A program made the position numbers and the translations under genes. Below, in pieces: positions 19,814-56,675 of a DNA stretch of 64,000 bases; position 1 is the first letter of the stretch; each line of letters opens with the position of its first letter. The stretch comes from a virus. The notes below the pieces were generated by a model. That model was not told where the DNA came from. It worked only from the letters and a program-made list of their open reading frames with translations, and did no database searches. The stretch lies in IMG/VR virus record IMGVR_UViG_3300026290_000001; one strand, given 5' to 3'.

Positions 19814-21031
19814 TTACTCTATCACCCCTTCATAATTAACCTTCCAAACATCATTAACTTTGCCATAGATGCCAATGATAGGTTTCCATTTTCCATTAAT
19901 TTTTACATAAACATTATTAATATTTTTCCAATTACCATTTACTTTATAAATCAGCGCAGTATTGTAAACTGAAATATCATTAATATTTAATAATAAATTA
20001 TCATTAGCATTGGTTTCTACAAATACATTTGTAGTTTCATGTATATTTATATTTAAACTATCATTAGAATTAATATCAACATTTTTGTGAATATAACTTT
20101 CATTAATAGACAATCTAATTGAATCAGTTATATTATTAGATGCAGTTAAATTATTTACATTATCCGTTGAAGAAATATTTAATGTATCACTAACATTTGG
20201 CAAGGCAGTAACATTTGCATTGTCAGCACAATAAATATTAATAGCATCATTTTTATTAAACTCATTAATAGTTAAATCTATGCCATTAATATCTAAATTT
20301 TCAGATGTGCTAATATCTACCAATATATTTTTGGTTTCATTTACACCTATATTTAAATTATCACCAGTATTTATATTAGTAATTAATTGACTTTCTTCGG
20401 TAATATCTAAATATAAATTGTTTTCAATATCCTTGGATAATACTAATAAAGAATCTTCTTGTAGATTGATATCTAAAGAATCTTCTAGGTTTAAAGAAAT
20501 ATATGATGATTCATCTATTGTTAAATTAATATCATCTTCTACTTCAATGTTTTTATCTAAATTATTAGTTTCACTTAATGATAAATCAAGATCGTCATAA
20601 GTTTTTATATTGTAAGCATCAGGAGAATCCCATATAGATAATTCTTGTATATTTATAGACAAAGAATCATTAACATTTATATTTACATTTAATGATTGCG
20701 AATCACTTACAGTTAAGTTAAGTGCATCTTGAAGTGTATTAGTTACTTCTAAATCCGAAACATCATTTAGTGTAATTATAGGCGGGTCAGTACCTGAAGC
20801 ATTTACAAGCCTTTCACTTTCCTCTACAGATGTAATAATTAAATTGTCAGAAACACTAAAAGTCCAAATTTTATTACTTTCTTCAGTTATAGTTATTGTT
20901 AATTCATCATGTACATTTATTTCTATAACTGCTGATTCTGTAATATTTAGTGTTAATTCATCCGAAGAGGAAGATGATATATCGTTTAATGTGTTGAAAG
21001 ATGTTTGGTTAAAACGTCCTTGATTAAACAA
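19814..21031 (-). CDS. tail/baseplate protein with short internal repeats
   Basis: Acidic, repetitive D/E-S-L-N-I units; fibre-cluster context. Confidence 0.3.
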   Translation of the reverse strand: MFNQGRFNQTSFNTLNDISSSSSDELTLNITESAVIEINVHDELTITITEESNKIWTFSVSDNLIITSVEESERLVNASGTDPPIITLNDVSDLEVTNTLQDALNLTVSDSQSLNVNINVNDSLSINIQELSIWDSPDAYNIKTYDDLDLSLSETNNLDKNIEVEDDINLTIDESSYISLNLEDSLDINLQEDSLLVLSKDIENNLYLDITEESQLITNINTGDNLNIGVNETKNILVDISTSENLDINGIDLTINEFNKNDAINIYCADNANVTALPNVSDTLNISSTDNVNNLTASNNITDSIRLSINESYIHKNVDINSNDSLNINIHETTNVFVETNANDNLLLNINDISVYNTALIYKVNGNWKNINNVYVKINGKWKPIIGIYGKVNDVWKVNYEGVIE

Positions 21032-22286: not shown

Positions 22287-22448
22287 AATTTATCACCTCC
22301 AACCTAATTTTTCAAAAAATAGAAAAATCAAAAATGTTCAAAAATTTATCTTCTGTTTTCTCTTGTTTTCTTCCATTTACTCTGTTTTTCAAGCACAAAA
22401 TTTGAATAAAAGGAATATTTTATTGTTGAGCCAAGAACACTCGTGACT

Positions 22449-23741
22449 TCAGTCATGAGATGAATTGGCTCTGTTCTGTTCATATATAATCCATGATTTT
22501 CTTGCATTAATTCTTTGCATGTTAGATATTTTCGGTGTCTTCATACCTCTGGGTGCATTACTAAAATCTATTTTTTCACCATCTATACCCATAAGAATGG
22601 CATAACCCGTAGACATTCTACCTTTAATAAAATATTCATTACCTATATACCTTACTTTATCAAACTTCCTAAATCCTTCTATTTTACCTGTAGGTATCTT
22701 CTGATGACTTCTTACTCCTTTTGCCTGTTGGTAATCGCCTTTAGGGATACACTTTTTTAATACAGCTTTTTCAGTTTTAAAGCTTACATCAATTAACCCT
22801 ATATCTTCAATATTATTTAAACAGGCAATAGCTACAGCATCGTAGTAATGCTCTTTTGGTAATCCCATTAGCTGTCTATGTTCTTTGGTAATAAATCCAA
22901 AGGTTTCTTTTGCATTTGGTAGCTGTCTTAATAATTGTTGTCTTATACTATTCATCTGTGTTGTGTGTTTTAATTGTCCTTTAATTTTACCATTCTTCTT
23001 TAATTTAATTCCTCCTTTGTGCAAACTATTATGACAAGTTTTACAAAGTGTAATTAAATTTTCTGCATCATCTGAGCCACCATTTTTTCTAAAAACTATA
23101 TGATGTACCTCTAATCTGCTGTCTTTACTTTTTCCTTTGCAATACTGGCAAATATATTTATCTCTACTTAATACATAAGCTTTAGTATTAGCAAATCCAT
23201 AATTAGTTCCTTTTTGATAAAGCCATTTATTACTTAATACTGCTGGATTTTTTAAAGCATGTGGGTCAAATGTTGCTGTTTCTATTATTATATTTGTAAT
23301 GGGCATTATTGATTTTGCAAAATCAATTTCTTTTAAGTGTGAATTAATTTTACTTGTCATTGTAGGAGAAAATCTATCTTTTTTAATGCTGTTTTTCCTA
23401 TTATTAAATCTAGGTTCCCTATATCTAGTTTTCCTATTCCTTCTAGTTCTCCTATATTTAGCTCTTTTGTCCATTTTGTCAGATATATCATTTCTAATTT
23501 CTACTTCTGATATATAATACACTTCATTTTCGTCATTTGCTACTGCACTTCCTATTTTACTACTACCAGTATCAATTCCTAAAGTTAAATCTTGTGTATA
23601 GTCTGTAGCATGATATAGTAATTTAATTGTAAATGGAGTTCTTCTTATGCATTTTGCTTTACCATCTTTTAACAATAATCTTGCTATTGCTGGTTTACAA
23701 GGCATTAAAGGACTCCCATCTTCATTAATTACATAAACCAT
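22449..23741 (-). CDS. iscB: IscB-type RNA-guided nuclease (OMEGA system effector; PLMP + split RuvC + HNH)
   Basis: N-terminal PLMP motif (GSPLMPCKPAIARLLLKDGKA), RuvC-I LGIDTGSSKIG, Arg-rich bridge RRTRRNRKTRYREPR, RuvC-II IIIETATFD, HNH CQYCKGK...EVHHIVFRKNGGSDDAENLITLCKTCH, RuvC-III HYYDAVAIA. Confidence 0.75.
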   Translation of the reverse strand: MVYVINEDGSPLMPCKPAIARLLLKDGKAKCIRRTPFTIKLLYHATDYTQDLTLGIDTGSSKIGSAVANDENEVYYISEVEIRNDISDKMDKRAKYRRTRRNRKTRYREPRFNNRKNSIKKDRFSPTMTSKINSHLKEIDFAKSIMPITNIIIETATFDPHALKNPAVLSNKWLYQKGTNYGFANTKAYVLSRDKYICQYCKGKSKDSRLEVHHIVFRKNGGSDDAENLITLCKTCHNSLHKGGIKLKKNGKIKGQLKHTTQMNSIRQQLLRQLPNAKETFGFITKEHRQLMGLPKEHYYDAVAIACLNNIEDIGLIDVSFKTEKAVLKKCIPKGDYQQAKGVRSHQKIPTGKIEGFRKFDKVRYIGNEYFIKGRMSTGYAILMGIDGEKIDFSNAPRGMKTPKISNMQRINARKSWIIYEQNRANSSHD

Positions 23742-24030
23742 AAAATCAAATCCTTTCGGATAAATACTCTGCTTAAAAGCAGGTTATGCGTATCTATATA
23801 CTATTACCATATATAGAATTCGTCCTCATCTCGACAATGATAAAATAGCTTATATGTATATCACACCGAGCCTTACCCTCCAACTCTACTTAGTGATATA
23901 CGATAGAGCAATGGTCTGATGCGTCAACCAAAGGTATCATAACTATTCTATCGTAGTATAAATTTCTCTATACTAAGTCTGGTGAACTTAGACTTTAGAA
24001 GCCTCCGACTTTAGTCGGGGGTAGTTCACT
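23742..24030 (-). ncRNA. candidate omega-RNA scaffold upstream of iscB
   Basis: About 285 nt with no ORF, GC-enriched relative to surroundings, several stem-loops on the - strand (cccccgact-aaa-gtcggagg; ctaagt-tcaccag-acttag; ctgct-ttta-agcag) directly 5' of iscB. Confidence 0.45.
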
Positions 24031-24271
24031 CTATTTCAGGATTGATAGATAAATCATCTTTGCTTGTACTATTTACATTAGATAAATTATCTTCATTGGA
24101 CAAATCATCATTAATAATTTGACTTAATTCGTCTATTTTAGAACTTAATTTGATAATCTCTATCTGATACATATTATTTTGTAAACATAAAGTGACTACA
24201 TCTAAGGGCAAATTACTATTGTTTATTAACTCTGCCAGTTTAATATTAAAATCACTTATAATAAAAATCAC
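24026..24271 (-). CDS. hypothetical protein
   Basis: ORF; may overlap the 5' end of the IscB element. Confidence 0.2.
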   Translation of the reverse strand: MIFIISDFNIKLAELINNSNLPLDVVTLCLQNNMYQIEIIKLSSKIDELSQIINDDLSNEDNLSNVNSTSKDDLSINPEIE

Positions 24272-25735: not shown

Positions 25736-26335
25736 ATGAAAGGATGTATAATAATGAAAATTAAAAACTTATCTTATCTGTTTATTGGTTTGCTAGTTGG
25801 GTGTTTATTTCCCATTCAATCTTTATTTGCCGAACAACCTATTACATTAATTATCAATGGTAAAACAATTACTAATGCTTCACCACAAATAGTTTCAGAT
25901 AGAACGTATGTACCTTTGAGGGTAATATCCGAAGAATTAGGTGCAACAGTTGAATGGGACGGAGTAAATAGGGTAGTTAGGGTTAATAGTGGGGATGGAC
26001 AAAAAATTGAAAAGATTAATCAAAATCAAACTCAAAACAATAATGATAATAGTAATGTGGAGAGCAACCCTAGAGATAATATCAATTATATTAGTAGTGA
26101 TGATATGGAAAAATATTACGAAAGAGATACAAATAAAGGTTTTGTAAAAAATCGTTGGGTAGATGGTAAATATTTTATTGACTATGATAGAAAAATTACA
26201 CGTTTTGAAGATTATGAATATTATTATGATAGAGAAAGAGATATATTTTATTGGGCAGATTATAAGGCAATTTTAATCTTTGGAGAAACAATAAAAGATT
26301 ATCCTAAATATAAATTTAACCAAATACAGCAGTAG
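25736..26335 (+). CDS. secreted lipoprotein with copper-amine-oxidase-N-terminal-like domain (moron)
   Basis: Signal peptide with lipobox LLVGC; domain ITLIINGKTITNASPQIVSDRTYVPLRVISEELGATVEWDGVNRVVRV; opposite strand to the surrounding late genes. Confidence 0.5.
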   Translation: MKGCIIMKIKNLSYLFIGLLVGCLFPIQSLFAEQPITLIINGKTITNASPQIVSDRTYVPLRVISEELGATVEWDGVNRVVRVNSGDGQKIEKINQNQTQNNNDNSNVESNPRDNINYISSDDMEKYYERDTNKGFVKNRWVDGKYFIDYDRKITRFEDYEYYYDRERDIFYWADYKAILIFGETIKDYPKYKFNQIQQ

Positions 26336-56599: not shown

Positions 56600-56675
56600 T
56601 GGAGCCGAGTATAGGATTTGAACCCATAATCTGTTGTTTACAAGACAACTGCCTTATCAATTTGGCTAACCCGGC
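56600..56675 (-). tRNA. tRNA-Thr (anticodon UGU), CCA encoded
   Basis: 76-nt cloverleaf folded by hand: 7-bp acceptor stem, T-arm with TTCAAAT loop, anticodon stem GTTGT/ACAAC with loop CTTGTAA. Confidence 0.7.

Follow-up and report, generated by a model that had tools for sequence, protein, structure and literature searches.

A probable IscB omega-RNA of the HEARO family within a non-autonomous IS200/IS605-type element among the tail genes of an uncultivated phage

The IMG/VR record IMGVR_UViG_3300026290_000001 derives from an uncultivated, AT-rich phage, and the stretch of it analysed here (64,000 nt, hereafter the window) carries an iscB gene in its tail-gene region. An interval of about 285 nt separates the start codon of that gene, at 23741, from an upstream 81-aa ORF whose stop is the TGA at 24028-24026, with all of these features on the minus strand. 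The locus raises the question of what this interval encodes, and, if it encodes a guide-bearing RNA, what that guide would be directed against. A first-pass annotation made from the letters alone had described positions 23742-24030 as a structured, G+C-enriched region without ORFs and had put it forward as a candidate omega-RNA of IscB.

The descriptive part of that proposal holds. Within 23742-24025 the longest ORF comprises no more than 29 aa, whichever strand is read. The G+C content is 36.3% across 23742-24030 and 39.3% across 23819-24029, compared with a window mean of 28.7% and with 22.5% in the 670 nt upstream of the interval, and only 6% of 289-nt windows are equally G+C-rich; the enrichment is real and of modest size. 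The 304-nt strand running from 24045 to 23742 has a predicted folding energy of -83.4 kcal/mol (z = -3.3 relative to dinucleotide shuffles), and none of 100 shuffled sequences folds as stably.

The identity of the structure is indicated by the Rfam family HEARO (RF02033), which cmscan matched to the minus strand of 23819-24029 with 121.7 bits (E = 1e-24), well above the curated gathering threshold of 83 bits and over model positions 1-211 of 211 with no truncation. HEARO is the omega-RNA of IscB (Meers et al., 2023; Goltsman et al.; a 2026 review). Across the entire window only two Rfam matches exceeded their thresholds, this one and a distant tRNA; matches to MIR395 and Bacilli-1 within the interval were far below threshold and were discarded. 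The HEARO match and the iscB ATG are on the same strand and 77 nt apart, placing the RNA directly upstream of a genuine IscB ORF, in the position and orientation that had been noted as typical of IscB omega-RNAs. The reading that the interval encodes the omega-RNA of IscB, and does so as part of a 1.6-kb non-autonomous IS200/IS605 element in a phage tail-gene region, is thus well supported, and we assign it, as a joint figure, a probability of roughly 0.88.

Related copies provide a further view of the RNA. A protein-seeded scan of viral contigs recovered the source contig, IMGVR_UViG_3300009671_000358 (99.6 kb), and seven other IscB loci, six of them (L002-L007) at 72-90% identity and one (L008) at 35%. 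Each of the five viral loci that include the upstream region carries a full-length HEARO RNA in the same position, and HEARO is also found upstream of the IscB relative in 14 of the 20 bacterial loci scanned. The closest bacterial copy, L031, has 89% protein identity and the same left-end hairpin and adjoining motif; it belongs to a Tetragenococcus metagenome-assembled genome and occupies a 1,005-bp contig barely longer than the element fragment, as expected for a multi-copy repeat. This copy may hint at the host range of the element lineage.

Covariation was assessed by projecting the Rfam consensus pairs, together with hairpins predicted in the 3′ tail, onto an alignment of six copies. Standard pairs occupy 85.5% of cells, compared with 31-39% when the partners are slid by one to three columns, and 31 pairs have changed on both sides, compared with 6-12 in the slid controls; as the pairs were projected from the window's own alignment to the model, these values are somewhat biased in favour of the structure. 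None of 500 shuffles reaches them. Agreement with homologous elements, which together with a covariance-model search the first-pass annotation had named as a check on its proposal, is thus positive, and the energy-minimised fold recovers the same stems as the RF02033 consensus. The scaffold is 93.5% identical to that of L002, a copy that differs at 38% of synonymous sites in the adjoining iscB; a scaffold so much more conserved than the synonymous sites of its neighbour indicates that the RNA itself is under constraint.

Within the scaffold core (23819-24029, minus strand), the conserved features comprise a closing stem, a first hairpin, a pseudoknot and a large central multi-helix domain. The closing stem, GUGAACU paired with AGUUCAC, is kept in all six copies and includes one G-C to C-G swap, and the pseudoknot, GAC (23979-23977) with GUC (23835-23833), has undergone one A-U to C-G swap (in L008). 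The conserved stems contain many G-U pairs. Three hairpins had been drawn from the sequence beforehand. The first, CCCCCGACU-AAA-GUCGGAGG, is present on the minus strand at 24002-24021 (its arms run from 24021 to 24002, one base away from where it had been placed), is imperfect, and forms part of the Rfam consensus structure. The third, CTGCT-TTTA-AGCAG (23782-23769), is likewise genuine and shows compensatory changes among the relatives, where it corresponds to helix 14 below. The second, with arms CTAAGT and ACTTAG around a TCACCAG loop (23991-23973), can be drawn in the window's own sequence but does not represent the conserved pairing: five of five relatives have lost its third pair with no compensating change, and its left arm pairs instead with the 5′ GUGAACU (24029-24023) to form the closing stem.

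Two conserved hairpins extend the omega-RNA on the 3′ side of the Rfam model, to about position 23767. The first of these, helix 13 (23794-23816, minus strand; CUAUAUAUG-GUAAUAG-UAUAUAUAG), has 95.5% of cells paired, with changes on both sides in four of its nine pairs. The other, helix 14 (23767-23783, minus strand; CCUGC-UUUUAA-GCAGAG, then AGUAUUUAUC), is 91.7% paired with two pairs changed on both sides, and is also listed as terminator-like in a terminator listing at 23783-23767; this terminal hairpin may represent the 3′ end of the RNA or a weak terminator. That RF02033 leaves out structural elements on the downstream (3′) side has been noted previously (Meers et al.). The scaffold would accordingly measure roughly 263 nt, to which the guide is added, with both ends being predicted. 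The remaining linker (23742-23766, minus strand) holds the iscB ribosome-binding site AAAGGA (23756-23751); a small hairpin over that site (AUCCGAAAGGAU, 23761-23750) was rejected as a conserved element, with helix 16 being 68.8% paired and showing zero compensatory changes. A promoter scan for the start of the RNA found 25 sites where 25.1 were expected from shuffles, and hence no enrichment.

The RNA is also the boundary of a mobile element. Similarity among the six copies begins abruptly at GTGAAC (24029), upstream of which identity is 30-44%, equivalent to alignment noise, compared with the 68-94% that the four closest copies show in the scaffold. At the other end, the window, L002, L004 and L031 diverge downstream of iscB after a common ATAAA, and the far ends of L005, L007 and L033 consist of a hairpin, then ATAAA, after which the flanks diverge. 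These breakpoints at both ends delimit a 1,606-bp non-autonomous IS200/IS605-type (ISC-type) element at 22424-24029 on the minus strand. A subterminal imperfect hairpin marks its left end (22440-22459, minus strand; CTCATGAC-TGAA-GTCACGAG), overlapping the final codons of iscB together with its stop, and is conserved in L002, L004 and L031. The first hairpin of the omega-RNA doubles as the subterminal hairpin of the right end, and the two (24021-24002 and 22459-22440) are alike in having a GACUnAAGUC core; each end of the element thus has a subterminal hairpin, and inverted terminal repeats are absent. The sequences that flank the element in the window do not repeat one another, so that no target duplication is seen.

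The pentanucleotide ATAAA (22419-22423, minus strand; TTTAT on the plus strand) abuts the left end and recurs at the far junction of each of the seven copies whose flanks are unrelated (the window, L002, L004, L031, L005, L007 and L033). From this comparison it is likely to be the target-adjacent motif (TAM), and TTTAT has been reported as the TAM of a related Geobacillus IS605-family element, GstTnpB2 (Meers et al.). The boundaries proposed here, 22424 and 24029, are drawn from the comparison of seven copies and from the restoration of an ORF described below, and could be off by 1 nt.

The resemblance between the two end hairpins invites a different reading of the structure, namely that it acts mainly as DNA, as single-stranded right-end signals for the transposase TnpA. 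Paired likenesses of this kind are expected of TnpA sites, and the end hairpins are also alike in relatives that do carry tnpA, a sequence located directly after iscB in L003 (as a truncated copy), L005, L007 and L033 and intact in L007 (133 aa; Pfam Y1_Tnp, 1.6e-34). However, recognition by TnpA would explain one subterminal hairpin and not a covarying multi-helix structure of about 263 nt with a pseudoknot. The frequent G-U pairs of the conserved stems also argue against a structure that acts as DNA, as such pairs are stable in RNA but considerably weaker in DNA. Moreover, the roles are not exclusive, as the right end serves both according to the literature (Meers et al.). We therefore regard a predominantly DNA-level function as highly improbable and retain the omega-RNA reading, with the first hairpin serving the element's end as well.

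The gene downstream of the RNA is an intact iscB (22449-23741, minus strand) of 430 aa, with Pfam matches to RRXRR at residues 2-178 (2e-54) and to HNH at residues 198-242 (4e-14). Solved IscB structures are among its matches in the PDB, the best being 11hr (E = 1e-43), along with 7utn and 7xht (both E = 1.7e-42), and the expected motifs are present: PLMP at 11-14, D57 within LGIDTG, the bridge-helix segment RRTRRNRK at 97-104, E154, the HNH residues H213/H214 with CxxC...CxxH, and H299/D302 of RuvC-III. PLMP, D57, E154, H213/H214 and H299/D302 all align with identical residues of solved IscB, and E154 and H299/D302 are taken by us to be catalytic by assignment from OgeuIscB. Mutation of D58/H209/H210, the counterparts of D57 and H213/H214, inactivates GstIscB (Meers et al.). 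The C-terminal 120 or so residues (309-430), in which the TAM-reading domain is expected, gave no sequence alignment to solved IscB chains, and the match to a PHROG HNH family reaches as far as residue 377. Ratios of dN/dS are 0.07-0.23 against four relatives of 73-90% identity, and the gene is under purifying selection.

Neither a tnpA gene nor a second copy of the element was found in the 64-kb window, which makes the element non-autonomous, and this is the usual state of iscB elements (Meers et al.). The lack of the transposase gene also means that it may be stranded. An empty-site allele was sought among viral contigs with a 29-nt string from the flanks and with the 168-aa protein encoded downstream, both of which returned the source contig alone, and no insertion-free relative of the phage was found in viral or metagenome collections. 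Two of the related phage-borne copies are decaying: the iscB of L007 (5917-7273) is split by a frameshift into parts of 372 and 89 aa, and the tnpA of L003 (2595-2879) is truncated to 94 aa. The gene that follows the latter is presumably a cytosine DNA methyltransferase, as judged from its appearance.

These observations could be taken to mean that the locus in the window is itself a stranded relic, its RNA and protein still recognisable but no longer working as an RNA-guided nuclease, so that a phage HNH gene would now simply have the interval as its 5′ leader. The missing tnpA, the failure to find either an empty site in the viral and metagenome collections or a second copy in the window, and the decay within the lineage (the frameshifted iscB of L007, the truncated tnpA of L003) all lean in that direction. 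Yet iscB in the window is full length, has all motif residues and evolves at dN/dS values of 0.07-0.23; the RNA exceeds the family threshold over the whole model, with stems kept by compensatory changes; and the scaffold is far more conserved than the adjoining synonymous sites. A relic is therefore considered unlikely, and the locus is treated below as an omega-RNA and an IscB that remain under constraint together.

If the interval is an omega-RNA, its 5′ end should carry a guide. The predicted 16-nt guide, 5′-TCAATCCTGAAATAGA-3′, lies at 24030-24045 on the minus strand, immediately outside the transposon end, with its length taken from characterised IscB systems. The first-pass annotation had anticipated a segment of about 16 nt at the 5′ edge, which stands, and had placed it near 24022-24045, which does not: positions 24029-24022 are already scaffold, so the guide cannot extend to 24022 and is instead positioned at 24045-24030. 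As the copies are unrelated upstream of 24029, this segment is flanking phage DNA that happens to occupy the guide position, and it coincides with the final codons of the 81-aa ORF upstream. The guide is thus flanking DNA, as in any IS200/IS605 element, and was not taken up as a spacer directed at a host or a competitor.

It had also been proposed that the guide be compared with the phage itself, with competing phages and with the host. In the window, its only full match is its own site; no second target was found there beyond one site with three mismatches, which is at chance level. A 23-nt flank string that includes the guide was in addition searched against metagenome contigs and occurred in two unrelated ones (L099, 1703-1730; L100, 423-451). 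In both, the exact match is 23-25 nt long and its reading frame gives LSINPEI, the peptide also encoded in the phage ORF; one of the sites seems to fall within a NUDIX-type gene and the second within an unrelated ORF, by our reading. With nothing else shared, we judge these to be chance matches in AT-rich coding DNA, while noting that two matches in frame are slightly odd.

Matches of this kind bear on the idea that the system is a domesticated weapon, with the guide targeting the host's chromosome or a rival phage instead of the element's own empty site. The phage setting makes such a role conceivable, several cultured phages carry IscB genes, and the guide-containing string does recur in two unrelated contigs. 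Against this, the guide is merely the DNA abutting the element's end and differs in every copy, the window holds no second match to it, the two metagenome contigs have only 23-25 nt in common with it, and the targeting of insertion-free sibling phages is already part of the explanation that we prefer. Use as a weapon is hence hardly probable at all, and the guide is best read as pointing back to the site at which the element resides.

The 81-aa phage ORF (24026-24271, minus strand), which had no match in protein family searches, is co-oriented with the element and ends at a TGA (24028-24026) supplied by the element's first bases. When the element is excised in silico, joining 24030 to 22423, the predicted joint is ...ATCAATCCTGAAATAGA|ATAAAATATTCCTTTT and the reading frame runs ...CCT GAA ATA GAA TAA, giving the same 81-aa protein with the same final glutamate; the stop codon TAA then comes from the motif, whereas with the element in place the final codons are GAG TGA. 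A shift of one base at either end of the excised segment lengthens or changes the ORF. The element's G-TGA (24026-24030) thus stands in for the motif's A-TAA (22419-22423), keeping both the last residue and an in-frame stop codon, and the insertion is silent for the 81-aa phage gene. An ORF ending on the element's own TGA was also considered as a rule for the family and rejected, since it holds here and possibly in L002, and not in L003, L006, L007 or L008.

These features can be assembled into a putative mechanism modelled on characterised IscB systems. Transcription of the omega-RNA would start outside the element, probably as read-through from the co-oriented 81-aa phage ORF. In the literature on HEARO and IscB, the right end bounds the RNA, and both the guide and transcription come from outside the element (Meers et al.). 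The RNA would carry about 16 nt of flank (24045-24030) as its guide, and its scaffold of about 263 nt would bind IscB. The resulting complex would be expected to cut guide-matching DNA only when ATAAA comes next; TnpA and IscB are reported to use a common TAM (Meers et al.). A guide match followed by ATAAA should occur only at the joint left by excision or in an insertion-free sibling phage genome, and repair of the break from an element-bearing copy would restore or spread the element, that is, bring about homing. Movement to new sites would require TnpA to be provided in trans, because the window has none.

A more specific version of this mechanism can be offered only tentatively, and we would rate it as possible but doubtful. 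In it, IscB and its omega-RNA would act during co-infection as an RNA-guided homing endonuclease, cutting insertion-free sibling phages at the stop codon of the 81-aa ORF, where TCAATCCTGAAATAGA is followed by ATAAA, such that the element and the neighbouring tail genes would be copied in together (marker exclusion), and the element would be adapted to gene ends. Were this to be true, the insertion would cost the phage nothing, with G-TGA replacing A-TAA, and the adaptation would be to places where read-through transcription makes the guide RNA.

HEARO RNAs and IscB omega-RNAs have been described in detail (Weinberg et al., 2009; Altae-Tran et al., 2021; Meers et al., 2023), and the locus reported here is a further example of a known system, whose family, RNA and mechanism are well described; standard Rfam or Pfam annotation would label it. 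The RNA has the position and strand relative to iscB, the closing stem, the first hairpin, the pseudoknot, the central domain and the variable 5′ segment of HEARO (RF02033), and differs in having the additional hairpins at 23816-23794 and 23783-23767, which lie in the stretch from the model's 3′ end to the ribosome-binding site. The distance from the model end to the ATG is 77 nt here, compared with 41-66 nt in most matched bacterial relatives and up to 96 nt in one.

The protein shares with OgeuIscB (PDB 7utn, 7xht, 8csz) the same PLMP, RuvC, bridge-helix and HNH architecture (E about 1e-42). It is shorter, at 430 aa compared with 496 aa, aligns over residues 1-308 alone, with a diverged C-terminal domain, and is phage-encoded and known from sequence alone. 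The published motif of OgeuIscB is NWRRNA, which the ATAAAA region proposed here from sequence comparison would fit. GstIscB of Geobacillus stearothermophilus (ISGst; Meers et al., 2023) resembles the present system in belonging to IS605-type elements with iscB and an omega-RNA bounded by the right end, in having a guide that lies beyond the element, with an AT-rich pentanucleotide beside the left end, and in being likewise co-oriented with an upstream gene; most Gst elements are also non-autonomous. The differences are a TTCAT motif there compared with the TTTAT proposed here, and the phage location of the present copy.

Occurrence in phages is not in itself new, as HEARO nucleases in viral genomes were reported by Goltsman et al. 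Proteins 27-42% identical to the one described here are encoded by Clostridium phage c-st, Clostridioides phage pCD1602_4 and Staphylococcus, Ralstonia and other phages, where they are usually annotated as HNH endonuclease or hypothetical protein. These IscB-like genes of cultured phages are phage-borne as well, but all are below 60% identity, in a comparison made by protein and DNA only, and the DNA of the locus had no match among 50,697 phage records. The locus adds one fully dissected IscB element from a phage structural-gene region, with its guide, scaffold, ends, likely motif and silent stop-codon insertion, and confirms that an omega-RNA can be spotted by a reader working from sequence alone. 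Its only mildly unusual points are the tail-region phage setting and the insertion that preserves a stop codon. Phage-borne IscB proteins are of broader interest as compact candidates for genome editing and as possible RNA-guided analogues of phage homing endonucleases.

The surroundings of the element offer several minor observations. Its neighbouring genes are all on the minus strand, and one of them encodes a minor tail protein of 957 aa (phrog_6211, 4e-188). A 405-aa ORF (19814-21031, minus strand) situated among the tail genes downstream of the element contains many short, loosely repeated segments rich in D, E, N, S, I and L (...LNI..., ...DSL.I.I...); it matched neither Pfam nor PHROG families and may encode a repetitive, fibre-like protein. 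On the opposite strand, inside the minus-strand tail block, a 199-aa ORF (25736-26335, plus strand) has a hydrophobic N-terminus and a domain of the copper amine oxidase N-terminal type (PF07833, 1.4e-14), and could be a cargo gene for a protein associated with the cell envelope. Farther away, a single tRNA-Thr gene with the anticodon TGT is encoded at 56600-56675 on the minus strand.
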